From positions 412,890 through 476,889 of the forward strand of contig JBAZBD010000001.1 in NCBI GenBank assembly GCA_041671645.1: a stretch of 64,000 nt of DNA. Reading direction: 5' to 3'. This DNA is from Patescibacteria group bacterium (GTDB lineage: Bacteria; Patescibacteriota; UBA1384; XYA2-FULL-43-10; 1-14-0-10-43-13). The notes below the pieces were generated by a model. That model searched no databases and was not told the origin of the DNA. It saw only the letters and a program-made list of their open reading frames with translations. The number at the start of each line of letters is the position of its first letter. Within the stretch, counting starts at the first letter, position 1. A program made the translations under genes and the position numbers. Of this stretch, positions 9,804 to 64,000 are shown piece after piece.

Positions 9804-9808
9804 TATAT

Positions 9809-9884
9809 CGGAGCGTGGCCCAATTGGTAGGGCACGCGATTCGGGTTCGCGAGACTCCGGGTTCGAGTCCCGGCGCTCCGACCA
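9809..9884 (+). tRNA. tRNA-Pro (anticodon CGG)
   Basis: Acceptor CGGAGCG/CGCTCCG, D arm GCCC-AATTGGTA-GGGC, anticodon stem CGCGA/TCGCG with loop TTCGGGT, T arm CCGGG-TTCGAGT-CCCGG, encoded CCA. Confidence 0.7.
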
Positions 9885-9936
9885 TTTTACATATGAGAAG
9901 ACTGATGCTAATATATTGTCTGGAGAAAATTTTGTT

Positions 9937-23760: not shown

Positions 23761-24288
23761 ATGAAGTTATCCAAGAATGTCAAAGCAATTTTGAGTACTA
23801 TTGGCTTGGGGCTGGCGCTTACAGTCGCGTCCACCTCGCCATATTTTTTGGTCAATTTAGTCAAATCAAAGAACAAATACGAGAAATATCGCTACAAGAA
23901 AATCATCAAAAAATTGTTTGACGACAAGATCATTTATCTTTCGGGGGAGGAAATAAAGTTGTCCGAAAATGGTCTCGAACTGCTGAGGCTTGCGCAGGTC
24001 GAGGATATCACTATCGCCAAGGGCAAAGGCGAATGGGATGGTTTTTGGCACCTGGTCTGCTATGACGTGCCGGAATCATACAAGCAGAGGAGGGATTGTT
24101 TCCGCCGAAAACTTATTGAATCAGGATTTTACCAAGTTCAGTACAGTCTGTGGGTAATTCCGTGGCCATGCAAAGAGGAGATTGCGATTATTGCGCAAAG
24201 TCTCGACATTGCGCCCTTTGTTGCCTATCTCAATACCGATTATCTGCCCCAACAACAAAAGCTCCTGAACCATTTCGATCTCGCATAA
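23761..24288 (+). CDS. PaaX-like domain protein (putative transcriptional regulator) with an N-terminal hydrophobic anchor
   Basis: WDGFWHLVCYDVPESYKQRRDCFRRKLIESGFYQVQYSLWVIPWP matches the PaaX middle-domain signature (W-x-G-x-WHLV-x-Y..P...R...R..L...GF......W). It has a preceding wHTH-like region (LSENGLELLRLAQ) and an N-terminal TM/signal. Confidence 0.5.
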   Translation: MKLSKNVKAILSTIGLGLALTVASTSPYFLVNLVKSKNKYEKYRYKKIIKKLFDDKIIYLSGEEIKLSENGLELLRLAQVEDITIAKGKGEWDGFWHLVCYDVPESYKQRRDCFRRKLIESGFYQVQYSLWVIPWPCKEEIAIIAQSLDIAPFVAYLNTDYLPQQQKLLNHFDLA

Positions 24289-44143: not shown

Positions 44144-44219
44144 GCCGATGTAGCTCAGTTGGTAGAGCAACTCCATGGTAAGGAGTAGGTCACCGGTTCA
44201 ATTCCGGTCATCGGCTCCA
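44144..44219 (+). tRNA. tRNA-Thr (anticodon GGT)
   Basis: Acceptor GCCGATG/CATCGGC, D arm GCTC-AGTTGGTA-GAGC, anticodon stem ACTCC/GGAGT with loop ATGGTAA, T arm ACCGG-TTCAATT-CCGGT, CCA. Confidence 0.75.
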
Positions 44220-44240
44220 GACAAATAGTGGCATTAGTAA

Positions 44241-44329
44241 GCCCCGACGCCCAGGGAAACTGGGATCGGGGTCCCGATCAAAACATCGGGAGAGTAGGTC
44301 GCCCCGACAAGTCGGGGTCAACGGCTCCA
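44241..44329 (+). other. Cluster of three GC-rich hairpins after tRNA-Thr (structured RNA or terminator cluster), ending in a tRNA-3'-end-like TCAACGGCTCCA
   Basis: CCCCGA-cg-CCCAG-GGAAA-CTGGG-a-TCGGGG; TCCCGAT-caaaac-ATCGGGA; CCCCGA-caag-TCGGGG. The last 12 nt mimic the tRNA-Thr acceptor 3' end (CATCGGCTCCA). Confidence 0.3.
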
Positions 44330-44435
44330 TAAAAATATCAATAATCGAATATCATTGATCAAGTGATTGAATAATTCCTGAAAATAGGTTACAATAACTT
44401 GTGATTTGGTACTTGAAACTTGGTATTTTTTTGTT

Positions 44436-44520
44436 GCTGGGATAGCAAAGTGGTCAACTGCATCTGACTGTAAATCAGACGGCATCGCCTTCGTAGGTTC
44501 GAATCCTGCTCCCAGCACCA
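44436..44520 (+). tRNA. tRNA-Tyr (anticodon GTA), type II with a long variable arm
   Basis: Acceptor GCTGGGA/TCCCAGC, anticodon stem TCTGA/TCAGA with loop CTGTAAA, variable-arm hairpin GGC-atc-GCC, T arm GTAGG-TTCGAAT-CCTGC, CCA. Confidence 0.75.
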
Positions 44521-44574
44521 CGCTTAGCGTGGTGAAAGGGACGCCTAGCGTCCCACCTTCATCGCCTGAGCGAT
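44516..44574 (+). other. Three consecutive short hairpins between tRNA-Tyr and tRNA-Thr
   Basis: CACCACGC-tta-GCGTGGTG (uses the tRNA CCA end), GGGACGC-cta-GCGTCCC, ATCGC-ctga-GCGAT. Confidence 0.3.
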
Positions 44575-44576
44575 TC

Positions 44577-44651
44577 GCCAGCTTAGCTCAACGGTAGAGC
44601 AACTGTTTTGTAAACAGTAGGTTATGGGTTCAAATCCCTTAGCTGGCTCCA
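44577..44651 (+). tRNA. tRNA-Thr (anticodon TGT)
   Basis: Acceptor GCCAGCT/AGCTGGC, D arm GCTC-AACGGTA-GAGC, anticodon stem ACTGT/ACAGT with loop TTTGTAA, T arm ATGGG-TTCAAAT-CCCTT (one mismatch), CCA. Confidence 0.7.
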
Positions 44652-44692
44652 TTAAAAAATTAATCAGATATTTATTTCCGAAAGAAATCACT

Positions 44693-44860
44693 ATGGCAAA
44701 AGAAGCTAGAAAACTAGTCACACTTGAATGCGAGAAATGCAAATCTCGTGGTTACCACACAGACAAGAGATTGAAGGGTCAGGACGTTATCAAACGTATT
44801 GAATTGACCAAGTATTGCAAGGTCTGCAAGGTTCGCACATTGCACAAAGAAACAAAATAA
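44693..44860 (+). CDS. rpmG: 50S ribosomal protein L33
   Basis: MAKEARKLVTLECEKCKSRGYHTDKRLKGQDVIKRIELTKYCKVCKVRTLHKETK (55 aa); four-Cys zinc ribbon typical of L33. Confidence 0.8.
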   Translation: MAKEARKLVTLECEKCKSRGYHTDKRLKGQDVIKRIELTKYCKVCKVRTLHKETK

Positions 44861-44941
44861 GTTTGAGCTGGTAAGCAATAAGCCAGTAAGCGTCTAAGTT
44901 TTTACTTAATTCTTACTGCTTAAAAGCTTATTAGCTTCAAT

Positions 44942-45015
44942 AGGGGTATAGTTAAATGGTATAACGAAGGTCTCCAAAACCTTTATTAGGGGTTCGATTC
45001 CTCTTACCCCTGCCA
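44942..45015 (+). tRNA. tRNA-Trp (anticodon CCA)
   Basis: Acceptor AGGGGTA/TACCCCT, anticodon stem AAGGT/ACCTT with loop CTCCAAA, T arm AGGGG-TTCGATT-CCTCT, CCA. Confidence 0.75.
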
Positions 45016-47717: not shown

Positions 47718-48623
47718 TTATCTTCCGTATTGTTGCTGGGCGGCTTGTTCGCGGGCGGCTTGCTCCATGGCCGCGGCTTCCGATCCTCCAGCGGCTTGAC
47801 CCTGGCTGTCGCCCTGAGTTTGATTGAGAGATTTGGCTTGATCTTGATACTGCTGGATCTGCTCTGGCGTCGGTTCGCTTGACCCAGCAGGGGCTTGACC
47901 AGCTTCGGCCGCGGCTTTCATTTCGTCAGCTTTGGCTTGTGCTTGGGCCTTGGCAGCTGCTTCCGCCTGAGCGGCTTGGGATTGACCAGCGGCTTGACCA
48001 GTAGCTTGCATTTCCTTGGCCTTAGCTTCTGCCTGGATTTTTGCTTCAGTCTCTACTTTTGCTTTGACTTCAGTTTCTACTTGAGAGCGCATTTTGCCTT
48101 CGATAATACTGGTAGAGTCAATTGTGTAATTCTGCAGAAGTTCGGGATTGTCTTCTAGAATTTTCTGTATGTTTTTCGAGCTGTTGGCCTGGGCATTCTT
48201 GATCGCCGCCTTGGCCGCTTCGGGCGCCTTGTTGAGGACCTGCTTCAATATCTCCTGTTGTCTGGTGTTGGCTTCAGCGATCCTTTTGTCGACTTCAGCT
48301 TTGTTCTTGACCTCGGCCGAAACAATCTCGATTTTCTCAAAATTTTTCTGATAGCTTTCGCTGATGCTCTCTAGCTTTTTCTGATCAATCTTGTCACTAT
48401 AATTCTCGATCTCGGCAGTTCTACGGTCTGACAATTCGAGCAGATAATCAGTCTTCTTCTCTTTGTTGAAAATTAGCGCTGCCTTGGTACTCTCGCCCCA
48501 AGTTTGCAAGAAGTACATACTGGAATCTGGCTTGATAAAGCCTAAATTCTCAGATGCGGCGAGCGCGAAATTGGGCGCGGTAAGCAAGAGCGCCAAGGAT
48601 AACGTAAATAATATTCGTTTCAT
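47718..48623 (-). CDS. Secreted coiled-coil protein with an Ala/Gln/Glu-rich low-complexity C-terminus
   Basis: Signal peptide MKRILFTLSLALLLTAPNFALA; the C-terminal third is AQAEAKAKE-type repeats (GC-rich coding). Confidence 0.45.
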   Translation of the reverse strand: MKRILFTLSLALLLTAPNFALAASENLGFIKPDSSMYFLQTWGESTKAALIFNKEKKTDYLLELSDRRTAEIENYSDKIDQKKLESISESYQKNFEKIEIVSAEVKNKAEVDKRIAEANTRQQEILKQVLNKAPEAAKAAIKNAQANSSKNIQKILEDNPELLQNYTIDSTSIIEGKMRSQVETEVKAKVETEAKIQAEAKAKEMQATGQAAGQSQAAQAEAAAKAQAQAKADEMKAAAEAGQAPAGSSEPTPEQIQQYQDQAKSLNQTQGDSQGQAAGGSEAAAMEQAAREQAAQQQYGR

Positions 48624-50571: not shown

Positions 50572-51348
50572 TTAATCGCCTAGGTCGGCTCGGTCGATGA
50601 TGAGGGAGTCGGCACTTGTCGAGTCTGTAATGGCGTCGGGATTTGTAAAATAATTGATGATGCCGTCGCTGATCGCTTTGGCCTCGCTGATAAGTCTGGA
50701 ATTATCTTTGGCCAGGGATTTTGATTCGGTCGTATTGGTGATGAAGAAGGCTTCGGCCATCACGGCTGGCATCTCGGCGACCCAGAGCTCGCTGTTGTTG
50801 AATTTCGAAATACCCTGATCCTTGATTTGCAGAGTAGAAGCGATAGAGCTTTGGACGCTACTGGCGAGCTTCTTGTCTATCTCTTTGTAATATAGTGTGG
50901 TGGCGTAGTCGACCGAACGGTCGGTTTTGTACGAGTTGTGGTGGATGGCGACCAGAATGTCGGCCTTGACTGAATTACAATACGCGGCCCGATCTCTTTT
51001 GTAGATAAATTCGTCGTCGGTGCGGGTGAAATAGACTTTGTAGCCTGCGGCAACCAAGTTTGTCGCCACTTCCTGCGCTACTATCAGATTGATCTTGCTC
51101 TCGATAATCGAATTGTAACTGGCGCCGATGTCATTGCCGCCATGGCCTGGGTCGAGGCAGACTGACTCAGTCTTGGTTGGGACGGCTTCGATCAATTCCT
51201 TGACCGTTGATTTGTGCTCTTCTTTTGGTTCGGACAGTTTTGACCTCGTATATTTGCTCCAAATTGTTGGTACCACAAATCCGGCTAGAAGTAGCAAGAC
51301 AACGGCTAGCAGGATTCGATTTTTTCGTCTTTTTTCGCTTTGGTCCAT
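50572..51348 (-). CDS. N-acetylmuramoyl-L-alanine amidase (Amidase_3)
   Basis: N-terminal TM; VCLDPGHGGND, ILVAIHHNS, EAFFITN blocks (Zn ligands His/Glu/His). Confidence 0.8.
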   Translation of the reverse strand: MDQSEKRRKNRILLAVVLLLLAGFVVPTIWSKYTRSKLSEPKEEHKSTVKELIEAVPTKTESVCLDPGHGGNDIGASYNSIIESKINLIVAQEVATNLVAAGYKVYFTRTDDEFIYKRDRAAYCNSVKADILVAIHHNSYKTDRSVDYATTLYYKEIDKKLASSVQSSIASTLQIKDQGISKFNNSELWVAEMPAVMAEAFFITNTTESKSLAKDNSRLISEAKAISDGIINYFTNPDAITDSTSADSLIIDRADLGD

Positions 51349-51927: not shown

Positions 51928-54090
51928 TTATTCTTCTTCTTGTTTCAGCGACTTGGCCAACAAACTTAGCATTTTTCTAATTTTTATTTTGAGAATGGGG
52001 AAGCGCCTGAGCAAGAGAAATATAATCGTAGTTGCGAGTATCAGACTTGCTGAGACGATGGAAATTATTAAATTCCAGTTGGGTCGGCTCGGTGCGCTTG
52101 AGGTCTCTAGTATGACATCCACCGGTGCGGGTGCAACTTGGGGCGCTTCAACAACAACCGGGACAGCGGTGAAGGTTACCTTGATTGCGCCAAGCTCTAG
52201 GCCTCCAATTTTGATTTTGACAGTTTTCTCTTCAGCCGTGGTCGAATTGAATGTTGCTTTGTAATTATCACCGTCAGCAGTGATCGCGCCGAAAACATTG
52301 TTTGATCCTGTCGATTCGATCGCTAGTTTATCGCTCTTCACGACTTGATTTAGAGAATTTTTGAGGGAAATCGTGAAGGTGATATTGTCCTTGCCGTCAG
52401 CAACGGCGCTTGTCTTGTCTGGCTCAATCCTCGAATTTTCTTTGGTTGCCGGCCTGGTCGTTGTAGAGCTAGTTGTCGTGGGGCTTGATTGATCGGTCGT
52501 ACTTGCTGGCTCAGCGGCAGCTGTGACAGACCCAGAAGAGGATGGAGTATACGATGAACATTCTCCGACGGAAGTAATCTGGGGAGACTCTGTAAAATTA
52601 AGATTTTGGCCGCAGACAGATGTCTCTCTACTGCCACTGACTTTCCAATAGGCCAATCGAGATCCGAATTTGTAAGCATACAAATCAGCTGAGCCATTTA
52701 TCGCGACTAATTCGTCCAGGTAGAGGTTCCCGCTAGAAGTATTGCCTTGGCTGTCGTAAACTACGCTCTCGAATCTGATCGGATAATCGATCGAGCCATT
52801 GCCGCCCCATGAGGTTTTGGCAACGTCTAGCCCGAAATCAAATTTTAGAAAGTTCCATGAGCTTGTTACTTTGCCCATGTCAAATTGAAAAGTTTCATTG
52901 TCGGCATCTTTGACCCGTAATTTCAAAATACTTCCGCTGGTGGTTCCCTTTGCCCAGATGCCCAATCCGACTGGGCTTCCATCAAGCGCGGTTTCCTTTT
53001 CGGCAACAGTGTAGCCTTCGCCAGAGTAGAAATTATAGCTGTATTTCATAGCACCAGAGTACAAGCCATCTGCGCCTGACAGAGACAGGGAGGCGTTGCT
53101 GGATTGGTCGATCTTCCAGCCGTTGACGCCATCAAAATTATCAATATTTTTTTTGTCTAATATGTATATTTTCTCTGCTTGGCCAGCGTCAGAAAGAGGT
53201 CTCACGACACTATTGTATCTGTCGTAAACTGTCTTGTGACTTAGGTCTGCATTGACCATACCCCATTCGTCGCCGTCACGAAAACGGTACATTATGACTT
53301 TCTCAACTTCAGCAACTGACATGGCCATAATGTATGCGCGAGCGATATAGTTGGCCTGGTTCTCCGCTCCCGCAGTGCCAGTTTTGATACCAAACTCCGT
53401 GATCCAAATCTTTTTGCCACCGCCTTTGGCCCTGATTACATTTGCTGCAATATTAATAGAATTGGTGAAGTCGCCGATATTGAATTCGACTATTTCGGGT
53501 GCGGAATTACGATAAGGATGAAGGCCTAGAGCATCAAATTTGTCCCAAGCACCGGCATTGTATATTCCATTCCAAAAACTTGTTGCTTCGAGACGGGCGG
53601 TCAGGCCGGCCACTATCACCTTGGCGGAAGTGACGGCTTTGATCTTGTCGTAAGCTCGAGACAAATACGGTGCGTAGTCGTTGGCAGATACGAAATTGTC
53701 TGCTTCGTTGAATATTTCGTAGGCGCTTGCTTTGCCGTTGTAACGATTGGCGACAGTCTCGACGAAATTTCCCCAATCATCGACCGAAGGGAGCTCAGTG
53801 CCAGCAGTCAGGAGAATCAAGTTTTCAATCCCCCTGTCGCTGGCTAGGTTGATGCCAGTATCGTAAGGCGTCCAGTCGGGACTTGCGCTGTAGGCAATTT
53901 CAGTCCTAGTAACATTTGCGCCTACACTATTCAAAGAGTCTGCAATCGAACTTTTGATACTGTCTGGCTCACTACTAATATAAGCACCGACGCCAAAGGC
54001 ACCGGCAAAGGCAGTCACGGGGGAGAGCGAGACCGCGAGGAGATTTAGTACGATTATAACTTTTGTGGCGACACCAACGTTGTTCCTCAT
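51928..54090 (-). CDS. Extracellular multidomain glycoside hydrolase (clan GH-A catalytic domain + beta-sandwich/Ig-like domains) with a C-terminal TM anchor
   Basis: Signal peptide; EIFNEAD (acid/base) and KIWITEFG (nucleophile) blocks; downstream beta-sandwich regions and Big-like segment; a Pro/Ala-rich linker and a hydrophobic helix (LIISIVSASLILATTIIFLLL) at the C-terminus. Confidence 0.55.
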   Translation of the reverse strand: MRNNVGVATKVIIVLNLLAVSLSPVTAFAGAFGVGAYISSEPDSIKSSIADSLNSVGANVTRTEIAYSASPDWTPYDTGINLASDRGIENLILLTAGTELPSVDDWGNFVETVANRYNGKASAYEIFNEADNFVSANDYAPYLSRAYDKIKAVTSAKVIVAGLTARLEATSFWNGIYNAGAWDKFDALGLHPYRNSAPEIVEFNIGDFTNSINIAANVIRAKGGGKKIWITEFGIKTGTAGAENQANYIARAYIMAMSVAEVEKVIMYRFRDGDEWGMVNADLSHKTVYDRYNSVVRPLSDAGQAEKIYILDKKNIDNFDGVNGWKIDQSSNASLSLSGADGLYSGAMKYSYNFYSGEGYTVAEKETALDGSPVGLGIWAKGTTSGSILKLRVKDADNETFQFDMGKVTSSWNFLKFDFGLDVAKTSWGGNGSIDYPIRFESVVYDSQGNTSSGNLYLDELVAINGSADLYAYKFGSRLAYWKVSGSRETSVCGQNLNFTESPQITSVGECSSYTPSSSGSVTAAAEPASTTDQSSPTTTSSTTTRPATKENSRIEPDKTSAVADGKDNITFTISLKNSLNQVVKSDKLAIESTGSNNVFGAITADGDNYKATFNSTTAEEKTVKIKIGGLELGAIKVTFTAVPVVVEAPQVAPAPVDVILETSSAPSRPNWNLIISIVSASLILATTIIFLLLRRFPILKIKIRKMLSLLAKSLKQEEE

Positions 54091-54238: not shown

Positions 54239-55441
54239 ATGGTACTGTTTCTCGACATGAATTCGTTTTTTGCTTCGGTCGAGCAACAGGTCCAGCCGAC
54301 TTTGCGGGGGCGACCGATCGGTGTTTCGCCTTATACAGGCGAATCTGGCTGTATTATCGCCGCTTCGTACGAAGCAAAGCAGAGGGGCGTCCGGATTTGC
54401 CGCAATGGGGAAGCCAAAAAACTTTGCCCGGAGATCAAGATTGTGGAGGCGCGGCCGGCACTATATATGCTTTATCACAAAGAAATCAGGCGCGTGATAG
54501 AAAAGTTCACACCCTTCTACGACGTCTTGAGTATTGACGAATTTGCGATCTACCTGACCCCGTTGGATCAAAACAGAGAGAAGGCGATTGCGATGGCGAT
54601 CGGGTTGAAGAAGGCGATACAGGAGGAAGTAGGGGATTATCTGCGCTGTTCGGTCGGAATAAGCTCATCTATCTTTTTGGCCAAAATGGCAGGGGAGAGA
54701 CAGAAGCCAGACGGGCTGACGACTCTCGAATTAAAAAATTTGAGGCAGTTTTATGCCGGATTAAGGTTGACTGATCTGACTGGTATAAACTGGCGTTTAG
54801 AAATACAACTCAAAAATTTCGGTATCAATTCCCCACTAGACCTTTTCGATAAGCCGGTCGGAGAATTGGCTCGAATGCTCAATCACTGGGGAAAACTCTG
54901 GTATTTTCGTCTTCGCGGTCACGAAGTTGATGATTATGCTGTAAAGAATAAAACTATTGGTCATTCCTGTGTTCTGGCACCAGAATTTCGGTCGAAACTA
55001 GGGGCGATGAACGTAATTCGCAAGTTGGTTTCCAAGGCGGGATTTCGTTTGCGTCGTCAGGGCTATCAGGCGGCTGGAGTTTCGGTCACAATTAATTTCA
55101 TGGACAGGAGCACTTTTCATATTAGCCACAAATGCGATTATTTTTCTGACAATTGGAGTTTTTTGGATCAAATCTACAGATTATTGGGCAAATGTCCCTG
55201 GCAGAGCCGGCCGATCTTGGTTGCCATTTCCTCTTTCAATCTACGGCGTGGTGAAAAGTTCGATCAGCTCTCCTTTCTTCGAGACATCGAGAAAGCAAAG
55301 AAGCTATCCGACACGATTGACGGCTTGTCTGAGCGCTACGGAGCTGATAGCATCTGCCAGGCTTCCTCCTTTGGCGCAGGGGAGAGCGCACCAGACCGAA
55401 TCCCCTTTGGTCGGCCCCGTTATGATATTAGAAATTATTGA
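54239..55441 (+). CDS. Y-family DNA polymerase (DinB/UmuC-like)
   Basis: LFLDMNSFFASVEQ (catalytic Asp), SYEAKQRGV and SIDEFAIYL (palm D-E) blocks. Start set at MVLFLDMN; the track ORF starts at 54170. Confidence 0.8.
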   Translation: MVLFLDMNSFFASVEQQVQPTLRGRPIGVSPYTGESGCIIAASYEAKQRGVRICRNGEAKKLCPEIKIVEARPALYMLYHKEIRRVIEKFTPFYDVLSIDEFAIYLTPLDQNREKAIAMAIGLKKAIQEEVGDYLRCSVGISSSIFLAKMAGERQKPDGLTTLELKNLRQFYAGLRLTDLTGINWRLEIQLKNFGINSPLDLFDKPVGELARMLNHWGKLWYFRLRGHEVDDYAVKNKTIGHSCVLAPEFRSKLGAMNVIRKLVSKAGFRLRRQGYQAAGVSVTINFMDRSTFHISHKCDYFSDNWSFLDQIYRLLGKCPWQSRPILVAISSFNLRRGEKFDQLSFLRDIEKAKKLSDTIDGLSERYGADSICQASSFGAGESAPDRIPFGRPRYDIRNY

Positions 55442-55534
55442 TGTTTTCCCACAGTTGCACTAAAATTTGGGGTAGTTTATAATGTAAATAAGGCACTTTT
55501 TGTCATTATTCTTGTATATAGGCGGAGGGAAATT

Positions 55535-58138
55535 TTGGGGAAAATCACCATCATAAAAGCTCTGAAATTAAGATTCAGGTTTCGTATCCTGACTGTTTTG
55601 GCGTGTCTGGTACTGGTGGTAGCGCTGGGTGGAATTCTGATCAGCAACAATCCTCGTTTGACACGGGCTAACGGGATTTATCTCATTTCTGAGATATGCA
55701 CAGTCGAAGGCGCTTGGGAGCTAGTTTGGAATGACCCTTATTGCGATGGTTATAATGTATCGGTCCCGGCTGGAGCTACGCTTACGATACGGGGGGGCAG
55801 AACATTCAAAGATGTGACTGTCGACGGCGGTACTTTGATCACTTATGGCGGCCCGCATAACTTTACGAATTTAACTGTGAAAAATAGCGGCACAGTGACT
55901 CACGACGCTCTTGCTCAAAACGAAACTATAATTGCTGACAACTCTAGTACCAAAATGGTCAATCTTAATGTTTCTGGCAGGCTACTACTCGAGTCAGGCG
56001 GCAAGATAAATGTGGATGGCAAAGGCTACGCGGGGGGGGTAAGAGATGATGTTAACGGCGACGGTCCTGGCGGCGGCGGCGGACATTTTGCTGGTGAGTT
56101 TACACTAGAATATGATACTTTTGGCGCTGGCGGATCAAATGCGGGCTGGGGGGGCAATGGAGCTTACGACACTTCCGACTCTGGGGGCGCGACCGGTATA
56201 ACAGGTCCCTCACCCTACCCAAGTTTTCTTTTGCCACAATATCAATATGGTTCTGGCGGCGGCTACGCCTTTGCTCATAGAACGGGTGGTTCCGCTGAAT
56301 CGTTTGGCGGAAGCGGCGGTGGCAGGATCAAAATCAATGCAGACACTATTGAGCTATCTGGGAGTTCCTTCATCTCTGCAAATGGTACTAGTAGTGTTGC
56401 TCAACAAGATCGTAATCAAAACAACAAGAAGGTCGCTGGCGGCGGCGCTGGCGGCGGCGGCTATATCTCGATAACTGTTTCGAAATATTTGGCAAGTACC
56501 CAAAGTGGTGTTGATCCTTCTGGCAATGTTAAGGCTGGCCAATTGACAAGTGGATCCAAAGGCACCGTTGGTCAAATTACTGCGGGGCTCAGTAATTATG
56601 CTTATTTATACGCAGTACATGCCTACGGCGGTGATGCATTGGACGGTACCGAGGCTACTAATAGCGGCGGAACTGGCGGAGGCGGTTATGTTTCCATTAC
56701 CACTTCTAGCTTTGCGTCTACATGTTTGCTCCAGTCGGGTGTCAACAAACCCATACCCGCTGATTGTGAAAATCGGGATGTGGTGGTTGATGGTTTGAAC
56801 CAAGATTTGCCGACCGATTATTTAACAAATACGACAACAGCAAAGGTGTACGCAGATCTCTCGGATACTTCATTGGCGAGTTCCAAACGTCATTTTTCGA
56901 GCCTGACCATTAAGAACAAAGGGGTATTAACACACCTTGGATCTAGCGATTATTCTGACCAAGCAGTTTTCAAGAAGTTGGCGGCTGTTGACATAGAGAC
57001 AAGCGGAGATATCACACTCGAAAGTGGCGGTGTGATTGATGTAACGGGTAAGGGATATGCAGGTGGAGCTGCCGGAACGGCTGATGTACTTTACGTTTAT
57101 TCACACCCAACAAATGGTATGGGACCTGGTGGTGGCAAGGCCGCAGCCTACGGAGAATGGACGCTTCCTGCCGGTTATACCAATAACTTAGTCAATAATG
57201 ATCTTGTCGGCGGCGGCGGTAGCTATGCCGGGGCCGGCGGCGGGGTAACCGGAACGAATAGTTATAGCGATGGTTCGACGTCTTGGTCTGCATCGCTCTA
57301 TTCGACCGGTACGTTTGGCCTTGGCTCTGGCGGCGGCGGAGTAAGTAATATGACTGTTACAAGCTCGGTTTTCGCTGGAGAGCCAAATTTCCGTTTTGCT
57401 AGCGGCGGTGCCGGTGGTGGACGTGTCCGTCTCGTTAGTACCGCCGGAAAAATTATTTTCCATGGCACTGCGCAGGTACTAGCCAAAGGGCTAAAGGGTT
57501 CCAATCATTGCACTTTATCTTGTGATGCTTCCGCTATCGGCGGTTCAGGATCTGGTGGTTCGATTATACTAAATGCTACAGAATTCGATTTTGATACCAG
57601 CCCAAATATTAATGCAGATAATGGTGCGAATGGCTCTGCCATTGCTCCAAACGGTCTTGTCCAGAGCGCTCCAACCCTGGTTCTCGCTCCATCCATAACA
57701 GGCAACATCAATATTTTAGCTGGTGGTGGCAATCTTAATGATTCTAATACCACCAACTTGGGCGGGTATGGCGGCGGCGGAGCGATTGTCTTTGAATTAG
57801 TTACTCGAAACGGGGTTACGATCAAGAAGACACTTACGGCGATCGAACGACCAGGTGCGTCACCGATAAATAATTTTAATCCTTACGCTTTGCGGAAGAA
57901 CGATAAGATTTTGGTTACACTTGACCTGACCAATTTGCCGACGGGTCAGTCTGTTACGGTAACGGACGATCTACTGACGACGCCTGGCGGATCAACTTCA
58001 TATGCCATTTGTGGTGGTGATATTATCGACGGCCCGACCGATCAAGGATACACTAGCAAAACTGCTTCACTGATCACATGGACATTTACACCAGCTTCTC
58101 AAAGCAAGAGATTGTCTTACCAGTGCAAAGTTCAATAG
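55535..58138 (+). CDS. Giant Gly-rich surface protein (beta-helix-like repeats), N-terminal TM
   Basis: 867 aa; recurring ...DGKGYAGG.../...TGKGYAGGAAG... and GGGxGGGG blocks; no catalytic motif; immediately upstream of the pilus genes. Confidence 0.45.
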   Translation: MGKITIIKALKLRFRFRILTVLACLVLVVALGGILISNNPRLTRANGIYLISEICTVEGAWELVWNDPYCDGYNVSVPAGATLTIRGGRTFKDVTVDGGTLITYGGPHNFTNLTVKNSGTVTHDALAQNETIIADNSSTKMVNLNVSGRLLLESGGKINVDGKGYAGGVRDDVNGDGPGGGGGHFAGEFTLEYDTFGAGGSNAGWGGNGAYDTSDSGGATGITGPSPYPSFLLPQYQYGSGGGYAFAHRTGGSAESFGGSGGGRIKINADTIELSGSSFISANGTSSVAQQDRNQNNKKVAGGGAGGGGYISITVSKYLASTQSGVDPSGNVKAGQLTSGSKGTVGQITAGLSNYAYLYAVHAYGGDALDGTEATNSGGTGGGGYVSITTSSFASTCLLQSGVNKPIPADCENRDVVVDGLNQDLPTDYLTNTTTAKVYADLSDTSLASSKRHFSSLTIKNKGVLTHLGSSDYSDQAVFKKLAAVDIETSGDITLESGGVIDVTGKGYAGGAAGTADVLYVYSHPTNGMGPGGGKAAAYGEWTLPAGYTNNLVNNDLVGGGGSYAGAGGGVTGTNSYSDGSTSWSASLYSTGTFGLGSGGGGVSNMTVTSSVFAGEPNFRFASGGAGGGRVRLVSTAGKIIFHGTAQVLAKGLKGSNHCTLSCDASAIGGSGSGGSIILNATEFDFDTSPNINADNGANGSAIAPNGLVQSAPTLVLAPSITGNINILAGGGNLNDSNTTNLGGYGGGGAIVFELVTRNGVTIKKTLTAIERPGASPINNFNPYALRKNDKILVTLDLTNLPTGQSVTVTDDLLTTPGGSTSYAICGGDIIDGPTDQGYTSKTASLITWTFTPASQSKRLSYQCKVQ

Positions 58139-58160
58139 AACAGAAATCTAATCCAACTGA

Positions 58161-59318
58161 ATGAGAAAGCATATTTACGAATTTATTTTGATCCTTGTCT
58201 TGTCTTTGTTCGCCTTGGACAAGGCTTTTGCTGACGCTGGCAGATTGCCCGAGATGATGGTGGGCCAAACTACTGTGACCAGCCCCAACAGCGTCTCTTA
58301 TGGCGGAATGACGGGCAATTATGCGGTTTACAACGAAGATGCAACTTTGAGCTATGGCTTTAATATCGGCAATTTGAAGCTGAGCAATGCGGCCGATAGC
58401 TGCCTCGCTATATCCAACCCGATTTGTTTTGTCCTCGGCAAAGGCTTGATTGGCGCTGATTCAGTCGGTAACGCGGGCAAATTAATGACGAGCCGCACTT
58501 ACGTCGATGTCGGTGATGGCCAAGGACCGATCACAAGGCATGAGCTACCGGCGCTTTTCCTCGGCACCAATACAATAATGGGTGATACCTTTGGACTTAG
58601 CTCTAGTCTTTTCGACTACTGGGGCAAGAACACTGTAGGGAGTGGTGGGGACATCCATAGCACTGGCGCGACCTGGGAAATGCAAAATTACACTCTGAAT
58701 CCAAATTCACAGATGGCTTGGGACGGGACAAGCAACAATTATCAATTTGGAAAGTTCGATGACAAATTGCAAAATATGGCAGAGTCAGCTGTTTCGATTG
58801 GTTCGACTGCTCTAAACGGCAATAACCTTTGGAATCTGTGCGGCGAGAATCTAACTGATTCTTATGACGCGGCCACCTCATGCTCTGGCTATCCAGAAGG
58901 GAAGACTTGGGTTGTCGACGGAGATCTAGATTTGACGGCTTCCAGTGCTAGGACGATTCAATTCCAGGGAGTTGGTACAATTATTGTAAACGGGGACATT
59001 AAAATTGGTGCGAATATTAATATCCAGTCTATGGATAACAAGATGTTAGACAAAATCGGTTTCATCGCCAATGGCGGCGTATCTAGCAATGGAGACTGTT
59101 CTTATGGTGGCGGTGGATCGATTAATGCGATGCTCTTTTGCAAAGAAACAATGACGATTGGTCCTAATTCAGAAATGACTGGATCTTTCGTGGCTAAGAA
59201 TTTCAGCGACCCAACCAATGTAAGCTTCTTCTTTGACTACAATCTAGATGGCAAAGTGCCCCCTGGATTCCGGACTCTGATAGTGCCAAAGTCAAATGAG
59301 GTGGGGAACAAACCATAA
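58161..59318 (+). CDS. Secreted hypothetical protein (pilus-locus associated)
   Basis: Signal peptide MRKHIYEFILILVLSLFALDKAFA; 385 aa. Confidence 0.4.
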   Translation: MRKHIYEFILILVLSLFALDKAFADAGRLPEMMVGQTTVTSPNSVSYGGMTGNYAVYNEDATLSYGFNIGNLKLSNAADSCLAISNPICFVLGKGLIGADSVGNAGKLMTSRTYVDVGDGQGPITRHELPALFLGTNTIMGDTFGLSSSLFDYWGKNTVGSGGDIHSTGATWEMQNYTLNPNSQMAWDGTSNNYQFGKFDDKLQNMAESAVSIGSTALNGNNLWNLCGENLTDSYDAATSCSGYPEGKTWVVDGDLDLTASSARTIQFQGVGTIIVNGDIKIGANINIQSMDNKMLDKIGFIANGGVSSNGDCSYGGGGSINAMLFCKETMTIGPNSEMTGSFVAKNFSDPTNVSFFFDYNLDGKVPPGFRTLIVPKSNEVGNKP

Positions 59319-59520
59319 GTGCCAAAAAATTTCTAATTACTAATTTTTAATTTCTAAACAAATCCGAAATCTAAAAATTTCAATTCAAAATATTTAGGTC
59401 AATTAAGCCAAAGGCTCCCCTTTGGGGGAGCAATTAGATTAATTAGAAATTGATTTAATTTATTGTAAATAAATTAAATTCATATATAATATAGTTAAGC
59501 ATTCTAACGGAGGGGTTCAG

Positions 59521-60141
59521 ATGGACTTATCAAATATTTTAGGCAAGGGCTCAGGGAAGCCCTCTCGTGCCGACTCCAATGGTCAATTCAAGATCATGTC
59601 GGATTCTGGCTCGAATCCCTCAATCATCATACTCTGGGTTGGGGTCGCAATTTCTGTTTTAGCGAGCGGATTTTTGATGTATCAAAATTTCAGCATGAAG
59701 AGCCGTGTAGCAGACAAGAAGGTTGAACGCGATACGACTGTGGCCAAGCTTGATTCATCCAATTACAGACAGATTAGAGCGGAGGCAACCGAGATTCAGG
59801 CAAAAATAGCTCAAATCGAAGCTGCTCTCGACAGGAGATATCCTATGGCTGATTTCATGCCTCAGATTTTCCAACGGATCAACTCCAACGTCACGGTCAC
59901 CAGTATTTCTCTGACGAATGAGGGCAAGTTTGCCATGACTGGCAAAACTGACAGCTACCGTGGTGCCGCTGACCAGGTTATGACTTTTGAGGCTTGGAAA
60001 TCGAAGGATATAGCGGTTATGAACAATATCGAATTAGGGTCTATCGCTATCTCGGCCGCCAACAACAATACTGGCAGTGTTCCAGTCACTATCACTGCCG
60101 CTATCCCGACGATTCCTAGCACAGTGGAAGGAGCACAATGA
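59521..60141 (+). CDS. PilN-like type IV pilus assembly protein
   Basis: Short cytoplasmic N-terminus, single TM, coiled coil, then periplasmic domain; gene order ahead of the PilO-like gene and PilB. Confidence 0.5.
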   Translation: MDLSNILGKGSGKPSRADSNGQFKIMSDSGSNPSIIILWVGVAISVLASGFLMYQNFSMKSRVADKKVERDTTVAKLDSSNYRQIRAEATEIQAKIAQIEAALDRRYPMADFMPQIFQRINSNVTVTSISLTNEGKFAMTGKTDSYRGAADQVMTFEAWKSKDIAVMNNIELGSIAISAANNNTGSVPVTITAAIPTIPSTVEGAQ

Positions 60142-60701
60142 ACAGCAAAAATTTGATGAAATTTGTCCTTCCAATCGTTTTGATCCTTTTGTTTCTCGCC
60201 GTCAGCTATTTTTATACTTTCGCACAGCTTTCATCGAAATATTCTGATATCAAAAAATATGATGACGAGACAATCTCGGCTCAGTCCAATCTAACGGCTC
60301 TCGAGAAGACAAAGACATTACTAGACAAATCCAAATCAACATTGGCTGACGCCAAGGTGGCGGTAGCTGATGACAAAGATTCGCCCAATATTATTGCTGA
60401 GCTTGAGAGACTAGCGGCTCGCTACGGAGCAATCATTCCAAGCGTTCAGATCAGCGATGTCGCCACTTCTGCTTCGAAGTCAAAGAGTCTCGCCAGTGTA
60501 GGGAATGGACTGATTACTCCGGTAACAGTTTCCTTCATGATTTCTGGATCTGCCGACAATATGAAGGCTTTCGTCGAGACTTTAGAAAATGATCTCAAGA
60601 TATTTAATATCAAAAGCATGGTCGTATCAAGCTCGACTAGCGGATTGACGCTCTCGATCCAGGCAGAAATTTACAAGAGCGCGTCTACAGCAACTAAATA
60701 A
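60138..60701 (+). CDS. PilO-like type IV pilus assembly protein
   Basis: N-terminal TM, coiled coil, ferredoxin-like periplasmic region; 4-nt overlap with the preceding gene. Confidence 0.5.
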   Translation: MNSKNLMKFVLPIVLILLFLAVSYFYTFAQLSSKYSDIKKYDDETISAQSNLTALEKTKTLLDKSKSTLADAKVAVADDKDSPNIIAELERLAARYGAIIPSVQISDVATSASKSKSLASVGNGLITPVTVSFMISGSADNMKAFVETLENDLKIFNIKSMVVSSSTSGLTLSIQAEIYKSASTATK

Positions 60702-60708
60702 GTGAGGG

Positions 60709-60966
60709 ATGATGAATACTGACAAAACAAACAATTTAGTTCTCTGGGGCAGTATCGCATTTGTCCTGCTCGTCCTTTTGGGATTTGGCTCACTTTGGTA
60801 TACCTCACGAAACGCGAACGTGGTTGCTTCTAGCACTGCCAATGTTGATGTCGTTCAGACAGAAGCAAAGGCCGAGAAACTCTTGACTGGCCGAGACAAT
60901 CTATCCGGGATGCCAGTCTCTGGCCCAACCAGCGATTCTGTCGGAAAAACTAATCCTTTCCAATAA
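60709..60966 (+). CDS. Small TM protein in the pilus operon (PilP-like?)
   Basis: 85 aa; one TM helix. Confidence 0.3.
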   Translation: MMNTDKTNNLVLWGSIAFVLLVLLGFGSLWYTSRNANVVASSTANVDVVQTEAKAEKLLTGRDNLSGMPVSGPTSDSVGKTNPFQ

Positions 60967-60971
60967 AATAG

Positions 60972-63479
60972 ATGGACAAGAAGGCAGCCTACCAAAATTA
61001 TTATCCCGTGACGGAGGATATATTAGCCACCCAGTCTATTCTGGATGTTTTTGTTTTACAAAATATTCTCGATCCGGAGGATGCCGATAAGCTCAAAGCG
61101 AAACTCAAGACCAATCGTGAGGTTGAGGATTTCTTGCTTAGAAACAGAATCGTCTCCAGGGATACGATCAACAAGGCCTACAGCATTATCTTCAAATTGC
61201 CATATATCGAGCTCAAAAACGTCGAAATTAGTGAAGAATTACGCAAGGCAGTGCCAGAGAAACTGGTCCGGAAATACGGCATTATTCCTTTCGGGATCAC
61301 CGAAGGGATTCTCCGACTGGCTATGTATTTACCAGCTGACTTGTTGGTTAACTACCAGACAGGCCTAATCCAGCTTTTCGCCGATAGGGACTTGAAAATC
61401 GAGCTCTATATTACGGGACAAAGCGATTTCAACGAATGCTTGAAACAGTACCAGGGCAAGGCCAACCAACTTTTGATCAAGAAGGGGAGCCTGCCGGTAG
61501 TTTTCTTACGCAATCAAAATATTTCACAGAAGTTTTTGACCAAAATCCCGCTCGAATTTATCCAGAAATACAGAATCGCAGTTTTTGGCCAAAATGCCAA
61601 CAATTACTTCCTGGTCGCCTGCGAGCAGCCAGATTCTCCAGTTGTAATTCGCATTCTGGAGTTTATTGAGAAGGAAAACAATATTAAGGTTGAGAGATTT
61701 GCTACTTCGAGAGAGGATATTGACTATATTATTGGGCTCCTCGACAAGAAAGCTCAGCCTGCTAAGACTGCGGATAACTCTAAAGAAGCCGAAACAAAAA
61801 CAGCGGCAATATCCTCAAATCCGAAGATAAAGGATAAGGATTCGCTCGCCTCGATGCTGGATAATTTCCTGGGCTCAAACGATCCGAAGTTGACAGTTGA
61901 CGAAATACCAAACGCAGATCTAGTTTCTAGGCCTGATCCCGCCGAGAAACCGAAGGTTGGCAGGGATGCGATCGCCGAAATGACTGCTGTCAGCGCTACA
62001 CCTTCCTCAGATACTACAACTACACAGAATAATACTTCGGAAACCGATCAGGCAAAAAAGGCTGACGCTACCGCTGAACAAATTGCCCCCTCCAACGAGA
62101 TCAAAGCCCCCGAGGGCGCAGGCGGCGAATTTACAGTCACTGCTGAAGCGAAGAAGCAAAAAGTAGCTGCCGACAATTCTGAAGCTGAAGGTGCGGAGAA
62201 AAGCAGCCTTGATTCCAACGATATCGGAGCTCTGATTCGGGAGGAAGTTAAGACTTTGGCTCAGCTTGAATCGATCGCTAAGGAAGGGTTTATCCCCAAA
62301 ATTGTTGCGGCGGTCATCGACTTTGCCTTGAACCAGCGAAGTAGTGATATCCATGTCGAACCAAATGTCAAAGATATGCGGATTCGCTGTAGAATTGATG
62401 GAATTTTGACTGATGTCCTCAAGATGCCGCCCAAAATGCAGCCGCCTTTCGTTAGCCGTATCAAGATTATGTCGCGTCTCAAAATTGATGAGACTAGAGT
62501 ACCACAGGACGGTCGATTTGACGTGAAATTCATGGATCATGAAGTTGATGTCCGTGTCTCGACTTTGCCGACAGTTCATGGCGAGAAGATCGTGATGAGA
62601 GTTCTGGACAAGAGCAAAAGCATGCTTTCGCTTGAGGATTTGGGCGTGACTGGCAGTGCTTCGGAGAAAACGATCGATGCGATGAAAAAACCCTATGGCA
62701 TTATCCTGGTAACCGGCCCTACGGGGTCAGGAAAGTCCACTACATTATATGCAATACTTAGCCGTTTATCCGTTCCTGGAGTGAATATTGTGACACTTGA
62801 AGATCCAGTTGAATATGAGATCCCTGGCATCAATCAGTGCCAGGTCAAGCCAGAAATCGGCTTTACTTTCGCTTCGGGTCTCCGAAGTATCTTGCGTCAA
62901 GACCCAAATATTATTATGGTTGGTGAAATTCGTGATGCTGAGACCGCCTCGATGGCTACCCACGCCGCTCTCACTGGTCATTTGGTTCTCTCTACTCTTC
63001 ATACCAACGACACCGCCGGAGCATTGCCTAGACTGATCAACATGGGTGTAGAGCCATTTCTGATCACTTCCTCCATCAATCTAGTGGTCGCCCAGCGTCT
63101 TGTTCGCCGTATTTGTCCCAAGTGCAAGGAAGAGATGAAAATTCCACCAAAATTGATGGATGAGCTAAAAGCCGAAGTTGCCAAAATTCCGCAAAGCAAT
63201 CAGAAAGATTTTGCTCGTATACCGGCAGATCCGAAGGTTTTTTATGGCAAAGGCTGCTCTGATTGTAATCACGGTTACAAGGGCCGCATAGGAATTTTCG
63301 AAGTTATGTCGATAACTCCTAGCATCGAGGAGTTGGCGGTGACCAAGAGGCCGGCCAATGAGATCAAGGAGGTTTCAATCAAAGAGGGCATGATTACGAT
63401 GAAACAGGATGGAATACTCAAGGCCTTTGAGGGTCAGACAACGATAGACGAAGTTTTCCAGGCAGTGATCAACAGTTAA
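60972..63479 (+). CDS. pilB: Type IV pilus assembly ATPase PilB/GspE with an extended N-terminal region
   Basis: Walker A GPTGSGKSTT, Asp box, Walker B DPVEYE, His box LTGHLVLSTLHTND, tetracysteine CPKC...CSDC; 835 aa with two N-terminal GSPII_E_N-like segments and a ~130-aa low-complexity acidic linker. Confidence 0.85.
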   Translation: MDKKAAYQNYYPVTEDILATQSILDVFVLQNILDPEDADKLKAKLKTNREVEDFLLRNRIVSRDTINKAYSIIFKLPYIELKNVEISEELRKAVPEKLVRKYGIIPFGITEGILRLAMYLPADLLVNYQTGLIQLFADRDLKIELYITGQSDFNECLKQYQGKANQLLIKKGSLPVVFLRNQNISQKFLTKIPLEFIQKYRIAVFGQNANNYFLVACEQPDSPVVIRILEFIEKENNIKVERFATSREDIDYIIGLLDKKAQPAKTADNSKEAETKTAAISSNPKIKDKDSLASMLDNFLGSNDPKLTVDEIPNADLVSRPDPAEKPKVGRDAIAEMTAVSATPSSDTTTTQNNTSETDQAKKADATAEQIAPSNEIKAPEGAGGEFTVTAEAKKQKVAADNSEAEGAEKSSLDSNDIGALIREEVKTLAQLESIAKEGFIPKIVAAVIDFALNQRSSDIHVEPNVKDMRIRCRIDGILTDVLKMPPKMQPPFVSRIKIMSRLKIDETRVPQDGRFDVKFMDHEVDVRVSTLPTVHGEKIVMRVLDKSKSMLSLEDLGVTGSASEKTIDAMKKPYGIILVTGPTGSGKSTTLYAILSRLSVPGVNIVTLEDPVEYEIPGINQCQVKPEIGFTFASGLRSILRQDPNIIMVGEIRDAETASMATHAALTGHLVLSTLHTNDTAGALPRLINMGVEPFLITSSINLVVAQRLVRRICPKCKEEMKIPPKLMDELKAEVAKIPQSNQKDFARIPADPKVFYGKGCSDCNHGYKGRIGIFEVMSITPSIEELAVTKRPANEIKEVSIKEGMITMKQDGILKAFEGQTTIDEVFQAVINS

Positions 63480-63545
63480 TTTCCTTGCTTTGGCTCCTTA
63501 TTTACATTAAAATAAACATAACATAATAAAAGTCCTGGGAGGGGC

Positions 63546-64000
63546 ATGGGTGACGGAAGCTCGATAACTAAGTACTTGGATTTTGCGATTGCACAGAACG
63601 CTTCGGATGTTCATTTTTCTGTTGGCGTACCTGCGATGATCCGAGTAGACGGACGGCTTGCCGCTATCCCTGATGCGCCTATAATTTCCGATGCTGTGGC
63701 CCAAACTTTGATCACATCTTTCGTGCCCAAAGATCTATTGTTGACTCTCCGCCAGAAGAGAGAGCTCGACTTCTCCTTTGGCTACAAAAATATGCGTTTT
63801 CGTGTAAATGTATACTTCCAGAAAGGCTCAGTATCTGCCTCTCTCCGCTCGATACCGAAGGAAATCCGAGGTTTCAAGGAGCTTGGCCTTCCTCCAATTT
63901 TGGAGAAATTTACAGAGCACAGCCAAGGCTTTGTCGTGATTACCGGGCCTACTGGTTCGGGCAAGTCGACAACTTTGGCAGCGATGGTCAACAAAATCAA
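63546..64000 (+). CDS. pilT: Twitching-motility ATPase PilT (5' part; truncated by the window end)
   Basis: MGDGSSITKYLDFAIAQNASDVHFSVGVPAMIRVDGRL...ITGPTGSGKSTT; runs off the window end. Confidence 0.8.
   Translation, partial: MGDGSSITKYLDFAIAQNASDVHFSVGVPAMIRVDGRLAAIPDAPIISDAVAQTLITSFVPKDLLLTLRQKRELDFSFGYKNMRFRVNVYFQKGSVSASLRSIPKEIRGFKELGLPPILEKFTEHSQGFVVITGPTGSGKSTTLAAMVNKI

Follow-up and report, generated by a model that had tools for sequence, protein, structure and literature searches.

The last part of the window examined here, i.e., a 64-kb stretch (positions 412,890 to 476,889 of contig JBAZBD010000001.1) of a Patescibacteria metagenome-assembled genome (MAG) whose genes were taken from a six-frame list of open reading frames (ORFs), appears to carry the upstream half of the type IV pilus block that is standard in Berkelbacteria-like Patescibacteria; pilC, the pilin genes and pilD, seen in relatives only, would lie beyond the window. 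The two genes that open the block encode a Gly-rich protein of 867 residues, GlyRich (55535..58138), and a protein of 385 residues, P385 (58161-59318); they are followed by the genes of a PilN-like protein (59521..60141), a PilO-like protein (60138..60701), a small protein with a single transmembrane (TM) segment (60709..60966), PilB (60972..63479) and PilT (63546..64000, cut by the window end). All of these genes, as well as the other features of the locus unless stated otherwise, are on the plus strand, and every gene named in the initial annotation of this DNA was recovered from the ORF list at the same position. GlyRich and P385 would constitute a two-gene unit of Sec-exported, non-pilin beta-solenoid proteins, and the evidence leans towards their being surface proteins functionally coupled to the pilus. 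The attachment complex that they are proposed to form at the cell surface would work together with the pilus, e.g., by binding a host cell or another surface against which the pilus pulls as it retracts; P385 would act as the adaptor, and GlyRich, joined in relatives by very large LamG proteins, would provide the binding surface. All Patescibacteria in culture live attached to other microbes, and they need their type IV pili to bind the host; these pili also mediate twitching (PMC12206443). The molecules that recognise the host are mostly unknown, and this locus offers a conserved, unannotated pair of proteins, predicted to be secreted beta-solenoids, whose genes stay with those of the pilus throughout a lineage.

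The association with the pilus genes was examined in a metagenome scan that used a 60-residue alignment of the C-terminal domain of GlyRich and the motif FNPYAL[QR]x[NGA]D; the 25 loci considered (designated here by L numbers) were searched by tblastn with the proteins of the window. P385 is encoded directly downstream of GlyRich in 21 of these loci, the other four having less than 2 kb of downstream sequence, and all 14 loci whose downstream sequence is long enough contain the pilus genes. Since the identity of PilB across these loci is 46–69%, the gene order has outlasted considerable divergence. The order GlyRich, P385, PilN, PilO, TM protein, PilB and PilT is also found in L003/L004 and L007. 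In the contexts of the first GlyRich homologs, DinB is followed by GlyRich, either as a single gene or as two tandem paralogs, and then by a protein of 300–400 residues, after which the genes from PilN to PilT come directly (L003/L004) or are preceded by a LamG/DUF2341 protein of 3.6–4.0 thousand residues (L002, L005/6); in the genome to which L002 and L010 belong, PilN, PilO, the TM protein and PilB were found after the LamG giant. The upstream neighbour varies, being DinB in the window and in close relatives and a GT2 glycosyltransferase, located after Ham1 and NUDIX genes, in L035; therefore, the conserved block begins at GlyRich. The initial annotation had considered that its view of the Gly-rich protein would fall if the gene were not syntenic with pilus genes in related genomes; these genomes keep the block, and the synteny supports a functional link. 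Judged from the sequences, the nearest named relatives of this genome are the Berkelbacteria: the named relatives of PilB are mostly Candidatus Berkelbacteria, and one of the syntenic loci (L007) is labelled Saccharibacteria. L007 was also the sole relative recovered when genome contigs were scanned with PilB, the other match, to Sphingomicrobium, being irrelevant.

GlyRich (locus tag WC227_02455) is annotated by NCBI as a hypothetical protein. Its start codon is TTG, located 5 nt downstream of a GGAGGG ribosome-binding site, and this start aligns with the N-termini of its homologs. A consensus scan detected a promoter-like site, TTGATG-17-TAAAAT (55438..55466), upstream of the gene; this match is weak, as such sites are rarer in the region than in shuffled sequence. 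The N-terminus (residues 1–45; 55535..55669) was delimited with an alignment of the family (A1) and shows a long basic N-region (consensus MAKISI..K.R..R), a hydrophobic stretch of approx. 19 residues and a conserved NPxxT[KR]A; residues 7–38 are modelled as a helix. By its sequence this region could be a Sec signal anchor or a cleavable signal peptide, with NPxxT[KR]A as a candidate signal-peptidase I site. The protein had been described as N-terminally anchored and giant: the hydrophobic N-terminal segment is indeed present, but anchoring is unproven because the segment ends in this possible cleavage site, and giant is an overstatement for 867 residues. Glycine accounts for 17.2% of the residues, and runs of GGG or longer occur 13 times versus 3.6 +/- 1.75 in shuffled sequences. 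When the protein was aligned with itself, residues 109–390 matched residues 453–760 with 29% identity over 313 residues (E 2e-27), revealing a real internal duplication that goes beyond composition. Module A (residues 109–390; 55859..56704) comprises putative beta-helix rungs, a KGYAGG motif at residue 163 and Gly-rich loops. The second copy, module B (residues 453–760; 56891..57814), has its KGYAGG at residue 506 and is the most conserved block of A1. These modules are followed by a predicted C-terminal beta-sandwich (residues 761–867; 57815..58135), defined by conservation in A1 and by the model, with the consensus IKKTL..R.G..FNPYAL..D.I.V...TD..L...C...Y.C.VQ. The gene was also inspected for phase-variable DNA repeats, and this possibility was rejected, given that its sole repeat is of 26 nt and 2.2 copies.

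The structure of GlyRich was predicted with AlphaFold2 from 17 homologs (mean pLDDT 70.6). The model shows the N-terminal helix (7–38), two beta-rich modules and a C-terminal beta-sandwich (762–866, pLDDT 76–86), with the lowest confidence in the Gly-rich stretches of the modules, which take the form of beta-helices, in agreement with what had been guessed from the repeats. A Foldseek comparison of the model with the PDB gave nothing significant (best E 0.43), a search of all PDB sequences with the A1 profile gave 0 matches at E up to 1, and no family for the protein was found in Pfam or NCBIfam. The top structural matches are adhesins, led by tapirins, and enzymes rank lower; these matches span only 150–220 residues with a high rmsd, and beta-helices are alike among themselves. 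Tapirins are adhesins of Caldicellulosiruptor encoded beside type IV pilus loci (10.1101/359786). The best structural matches of GlyRich are thus proteins that, like it, lie next to pilus genes (PDB 6n2c, 6n2b, 4wa0); nevertheless, they have no sequence similarity to GlyRich within the limits of the PDB profile search, the structural alignments are partial, and GlyRich differs from them in having two Gly-rich modules and a beta-sandwich, whereas the ligand of tapirins is cellulose. The model supports the view of GlyRich as an extracellular beta-helix protein with an adhesin-like character; homology to tapirins is not supported.

The Gly-rich module has a wide distribution. An initial homology search yielded 20 clusters, none with a Pfam domain, and a HMMER scan with the family profile detected 7254 proteins at E up to 1e-3 and 693 at E up to 1e-30. 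The proteins that bear the module have a single copy in approx. 500 residues, two copies in 850–1000 residues, or up to 13 copies in 2000–6600 residues, and the sources of the large ones include Paceibacterota, Auribacterota and Nanoarchaeota. One of them, P0164 (L037, 10001-24859), with 4952 residues, has 13 copies of the module and a DUF2341 domain; its contig carries the archaeal markers ribosomal S8e, eIF-1A, LSM and S_layer_C, and pilus genes are absent within 10 kb. Judging by these sequences, the module is probably common to bacteria of the Candidate Phyla Radiation (CPR) and DPANN-type archaea. Since there are thousands of matches, including multi-copy giants away from pilus genes, the module is a general, uncurated building block of surface proteins, and it is only in the subfamily with the C-terminal beta-sandwich and a neighbouring P385 that the module is linked to the pilus. 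With such a number of matches in CPR bacteria, DPANN archaea and Auribacterota, the module deserves a family definition.

P385 begins with a predicted Sec-type signal peptide (..DKAFA|DAG). Its AlphaFold2 model is poor at residues 18–186 and confident (pLDDT 80–94) at residues 190–375, where a helix (194–209) is followed by solenoid rungs (248–357). According to this model the solenoid may resemble those of ice-binding proteins and of ComZ; the DUF3494 ice-binding-protein fold combines a right-handed beta-solenoid with a long alpha-helix, and ComZ is a competence-associated pilin of Thermus thermophilus (PDB 6qvi; PMC6561018). The match of P385 to the Pfam family DUF7305 (PF23981) reached 26.3 bits, under the gathering cut-off of 27; among three full-length homologs (the 403-residue protein of L007, P0142 and P0160) only P0160 matched it, with 16.5 bits, the tail-bearing proteins described below gave no match, and a literature search on DUF7305 returned no papers.

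Comparison with relatives revealed that P385 consists of two parts, named here head (residues 1–303; 58161..59069), which includes rungs 248–303, and tail (residues 305–385; 59073..59315; pLDDT 87–92), which contains the last rungs of the modelled solenoid and the motif F.YDY..D...PPGFR. In the genomes of many relatives the head, up to approx. residue 303, is a separate ORF of approx. 300 residues that ends in KLGIISIAG, and in these split forms a P385-type tail of approx. 80 residues is found at the C-terminus of a different, larger protein encoded farther downstream. The tail-bearing proteins have 317 (L029), 339 (L028), 451 (L009), 708 (L003), 1686 (L018) or 4017 (L002/L010) residues and are encoded between the head ORF and pilN, with an additional ORF of 426 residues before pilN in L018. 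Head and tail are fused in approx. 16 loci and split in approx. 7; the tail lies upstream of pilN wherever both are visible, and its end is separated from pilN by 90–650 nt, or by approx. 1.5 kb in L018. The break falls between modelled rungs, given that the last strand of the head is 298–303 and the strands of the tail are within 313–357. Moreover, P0160 is a fusion of a signal peptide, the C-terminal beta-sandwich of GlyRich (30% identity, E 3e-8) and a P385-type head and tail. LamG/DUF2341/Vgb_lyase-like proteins of 3673–4017 residues were observed between the gene of the P385 head and pilN in close relatives (L002, 16297-22655; L005, 13886-22526; L010, 1-8356); the one in L010, whose C-terminus is in view, ends in a P385-type tail.

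From the fused and split forms and the P0160 fusion, it can be reasoned, in the manner of a Rosetta-stone argument, that the head, the tail-bearing cargo and the C-terminal domain of GlyRich probably interact. The position of the break suggests the completion of the solenoid in trans as the simplest mechanism of docking. It is tentatively proposed that docking takes place in two pieces: the head of approx. 300 residues would be completed in trans by the tail of approx. 80 residues of an interchangeable surface cargo of 317–4017 residues, the LamG/DUF2341 giants included. A single adaptor encoded upstream of the pilus machinery would in this way accept various adhesins, and GlyRich would join through its C-terminal beta-sandwich. 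The P385 of the window is the cargo-free, fused form of a solenoid whose tail, in relatives, rides on larger surface proteins. The split solenoid provides a testable mechanism for the attachment of very large surface proteins; if the mechanism is true, and if the adaptor also binds the pilus, it would amount to a modular display of adhesins in episymbiotic bacteria.

Alternatively, GlyRich and P385 could serve the envelope or the cell surface in general, as adhesins or as structural proteins associated with the wall, and have neither a physical nor a functional link to the pilus; their position would then reflect an inherited gene order or a loose co-regulation of surface structures. This possibility is judged rather unlikely; nevertheless, several observations agree with it and weigh against the functional coupling proposed above. 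The Gly-rich module is not specific to pilus loci, given the 7254 matches that include the archaeal protein of 4952 residues, and it occurs widely in giant surface proteins whose genes are not near those of the pilus, archaea included. Neither GlyRich nor P385 carries a prepilin signal detectable with a motif search, i.e., G|F-T-L-x-E, and the idea that either could be a pilin was rejected. The two genes are set apart from pilN by an AT-rich spacer of 202 nt, in which a 7-nt repeat (AATTTCT, 4.3 copies, 59328-59357) is followed by a hairpin with a perfect 7-bp GC stem (GCTCCCC-TTTG-GGGGAGC, 59414..59431, assigned to neither strand) and by a promoter-like sequence, TTGTAA-16-TATAAT (59463..59490), a match to the consensus only, with a GGAGGGG ribosome-binding site after it; the terminator scan scored the hairpin on the minus strand only, the plus strand being without a T-run, and the hairpin may be a terminator or a regulatory element. 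Because the hairpin and the promoter-like site precede pilN in this gap, GlyRich and P385 are probably a transcription unit of their own, separate from that of the pilus genes. In addition, several close relatives likewise keep DinB, a protein with no relation to pili, upstream of the block, and the syntenic loci belong to one broad lineage and come from a motif-based scan, so part of the order could be inherited; the surface location, the binding and the contact with the pilus are themselves inferred from sequence. On the other hand, the block stays intact when its upstream neighbour varies, the order persists in 14 of 14 loci with enough sequence at 46–69% PilB identity, and the tail module is upstream of pilN in every locus that shows both, all of which argues for coupling to the pilus.

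Two further functions were weighed against the attachment role. GlyRich could be a secreted beta-helix enzyme, of the polysaccharide lyase or hydrolase type, that acts on the host envelope or on an extracellular polymer; this is very unlikely, as searches of Pfam and NCBIfam at E up to 0.1 revealed no family of lyases or hydrolases, the enzymes among the structural matches rank under the adhesins, and nearly every invariant column of A1 is a Gly, a conserved catalytic set of acidic or basic residues being absent. In view of the kinship between type IV pili and type II secretion systems, GlyRich and P385 could also be cargo exported by the pilus machinery working as a type II-like piston; both proteins have Sec-type N-termini, like type II substrates, and their genes adjoin those of the motor. 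Nevertheless, Patescibacteria apparently lack the outer membrane and PilQ, according to Meheust et al. 2019 (PMC6744442), and without an outer membrane export by Sec suffices to bring a protein out of the cell, with no further step required; export as cargo is therefore highly improbable.

The attachment role favoured here coincides in part with the initial annotation, which had proposed a pilus-associated adhesin or tip protein. An adhesin is plausible in view of the synteny and the adhesin-like structural matches, but a location of GlyRich or P385 at the actual tip of the pilus is unlikely, considering that neither has a prepilin signal or a PilY1-type propeller. Pilins and minor pilins, ComZ among them, are made with a class III signal peptide (G|F/M-T/S-L-x-E) and a hydrophobic alpha1-N helix; the motif of this signal is absent from GlyRich, from P385 and from the six-frame translation of the window. 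PilX1 and PilX2 of Nanosynbacter lyticus TM7x and PilY1 of Proteobacteria are large proteins of pilus loci that lack the PilD signal and have been proposed to be the adhesive part; in Saccharibacteria, the proposed adhesins of this kind are non-canonical PilX proteins (PMC12206443). These proteins have a C-terminal beta-propeller, in contrast with the beta-helix and solenoid modelled for GlyRich and P385, which show no Pfam match to PilY1; furthermore, the tip adhesin PilY1 is encoded among minor pilin genes, and there are no pilin genes in the window. As a whole, the locus may work in a similar way to the tapirin-plus-pilus or the PilY1/PilX-plus-pilus arrangements. In the accessible part of the report by Meheust et al. 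2019 (PMC6744442), the type IV pilus clusters of CPR bacteria are described as having PilB, PilT, PilC, PilN, PilO and PilD co-localised and PilQ absent, and in that same part there is no mention of the GlyRich/P385 pair, of the split between head and tail or of a long PilB.

Another feature of the locus is the long form of PilB, with 835 residues. The protein matches PF00437 (T2SSE) at residues 437–829 with an E of 1.9e-127 and PilB/PilF sequences of the PDB at approx. 1e-116; its Walker A motif, GPTGSGKS, is at residues 582–589, and a tetracysteine zinc motif, C715-x2-C718 and C762-x2-C765, can be read from the translation. The ATPase core with the N2 and C-terminal domains extends over 62280..63458. 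PF05157 (MshEN) is matched in two stretches with 62.4 bits (cut-off 23.1), and TIGR02538 with 546.8 bits, which is under its cut-off of 675.65, the match running only from residue 395 on. With its Walker A, tetracysteine and GSPII features, the protein is by sequence a true PilB-type ATPase; it is encoded beside PilT in the window, and its association with PilC, pilins and PilD is seen in relatives only. Two GSPII_E_N-like segments had been described in its N-terminal region, and both are present, although the second repeats the alpha/beta subdomain only. The first (residues ~21–165; 61032..61466; best PF05157 stretch 74–164) consists of a helical bundle and an alpha/beta subdomain, and the second (residues ~170–260; 61479..61751) was recognised by a self-match, in which residues 174–206 are 36% identical to residues 76–108 (E 2.4e-5). 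The segment of residues ~120–260 is common to all long forms and absent from the PilBs of approx. 580 residues in the alignment. Sensing of c-di-GMP by PilB was considered and, on sequence grounds, rejected, because the motif is degenerate: the MshEN c-di-GMP consensus, i.e., two copies of RLGxx(L/V/I)(L/V/I)xxG(L/V/I)(L/V/I)xxxxLxxxLxxQ, had no regular-expression match in PilB, and inspection by eye of residues 22–73 showed that the Arg of motif I and both conserved Gly positions are replaced.

Between these domains and the ATPase core there is a linker, which had been placed at residues ~260–400 (approx. 130 residues) and considered acidic. The linker exists; its limits are better set by alignment with long homologs at residues 261–420 (160 residues; 61752..62231), and it is only mildly acidic. 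It is variable and rich in Ala, Ser, Thr, Asp, Glu and Lys, with 29 D+E and 18 K+R (net charge of approx. -11), and hydrophobic residues represent 14% of it versus 38% of the remainder of the protein. A set of long PilBs was collected from the best 120 database clusters, 106 of which have 775–930 residues, with 47–81% identity and 97–100% coverage. The linker is present in all 106 clusters, with 107–258 residues (median 160), and so is the second GSPII-like repeat; its identity to the 105 long homologs is 6–23%, compared with 60–97% in the ATPase core. In a charge-hydropathy plot, all 106 linkers lie among the disordered sequences, and the disordered tether suggested earlier is in accordance with this calculation. 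The N-terminal extension is, in consequence of its presence in 106 clusters, a common trait of the lineage and not an oddity of this genome, an outcome that the initial annotation had itself named as a refutation. Judged by this distribution, the long PilB is the normal assembly ATPase of the lineage, and at the same time a variant that constitutes a lineage feature. It would have one complete and one partial GSPII domain, with a disordered tether of approx. 160 residues between them and the ATPase ring.

The alignment of the long forms also revealed a conserved short motif within the linker, SLASMLDNFLGSNDPKLTVDEI (residues 288–312; 61833..61907), whose pattern in the family is an amphipathic stretch followed by GP[ED] and then by [LIF]T[IV]D. 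A loose, permissive regular expression (hydrophobic-T/S/V-hydrophobic-D/N/E, within linker residues 21–90) matches 99 of the 106 long homologs. From its conservation in sequence, the motif is presumably a docking site for a partner. In PilF of Thermus thermophilus, which has a tetracysteine motif, the GSPII domain is complete in all three of its copies and binds c-di-GMP in two of them; triple consecutive GSPII domains in assembly ATPases have been reported only in Deinococcus-Thermus (PMC11731258). PilB resembles PilF in that its GSPII domain is repeated at the N-terminus and its length exceeds 800 residues in total, and differs from it in that one domain is complete and the other partial, in the degenerate c-di-GMP motif, and in the linker with its conserved motif. 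Outside Deinococcus-Thermus there is therefore a lineage-wide PilB design in which more than one GSPII domain is combined with a long, predicted disordered tether bearing a conserved motif. In L014 (14951-18093 of a 798-kb contig), PilB was observed as two ORFs, one of 433 residues and another of 544 residues that corresponds to the ATPase, separated by a gap of approx. 200 nt; in the former, the conserved linker motif lies between a pair of GSPII-like segments and a third one. The break at the linker may be genuine or may result from faulty assembly.

Regarding the other pilus genes, the PilN-like protein (206 residues, one TM segment) was identified by a profile and by its conserved position in all related loci; with a five-sequence profile (A2), its best PDB sequence was the PilN of Myxococcus xanthus in 3jc8 (E 0.006). 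Its conserved N-terminus, MDLENxL, suggests from sequence a cytoplasmic partner encoded elsewhere. The PilO-like protein has 187 residues, and its start overlaps the stop of pilN by 4 nt; the match to PF04350 is sub-threshold (E 0.031), and with a five-sequence profile (A3) the best PDB sequence was the PilO of 3jc8 (E 6.8e-5). The gene overlap and a single N-terminal hydrophobic segment would fit the PilN/PilO family. The small TM protein has 85 residues and no Pfam family, and its C-terminal GKxNPF is invariant in the five loci compared; it occupies what we take to be the pilP position of pilMNOPQ operons, which is offered as a lead only. The first 151 residues of PilT are encoded in the window and match TIGR01420 (pilT_fam) with an E of 1.6e-41 at profile positions 2–146; the PilT of relatives at this place has 355–356 residues.

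The absence of PilM and PilC from the window, which had been noticed before, was borne out: a Pfam search of approx. 60 ORFs and a six-frame search with a pilin-motif regular expression found no PilM, PilC, PilD or pilins in it. The relatives L009, L010 and L035, where PilB is 61%, 59% and 52% identical, respectively, have PilC (T2SSF) after PilT, then one or two pilins (N_methyl), PilD (Peptidase_A24) and more pilins. Since PilC and the pilins come after PilT in relatives, their absence here is most likely an effect of the edge of the window. No family match to PilM was found within the 10-kb flanks of these three relatives.

A few observations were made in other parts of the window. A protein of 720 residues (51928-54090, minus strand), encoded just upstream of the pilus locus and next to an Amidase_3 gene (50572-51348), shows a weak match to a glycoside-hydrolase catalytic core, a Big_1/Invasin_D3 domain and a C-terminal hydrophobic segment; by these sequence features it is probably another surface protein. 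A protein of 301 residues (47718-48623, minus strand) combines DUF5667 with a bactofilin-like beta-helix segment, and a DUF5667 protein is also present within the pilus-adjacent block of L003/L004. Four tRNA genes (Thr-GGT, Tyr-GTA, Thr-TGT and Trp-CCA) are clustered at 44144-45015. The ORF of an ABC-transporter ATPase (9706-10851) contains a tRNA-Pro(CGG) gene at 9809-9884, and the GTG at 9706 is almost certainly not its true start, which should lie farther downstream. Lastly, a protein of 175 residues (23761-24288) has a PaaX central Cas2-like domain (E 6.8e-22) and a weak match to Cas2.

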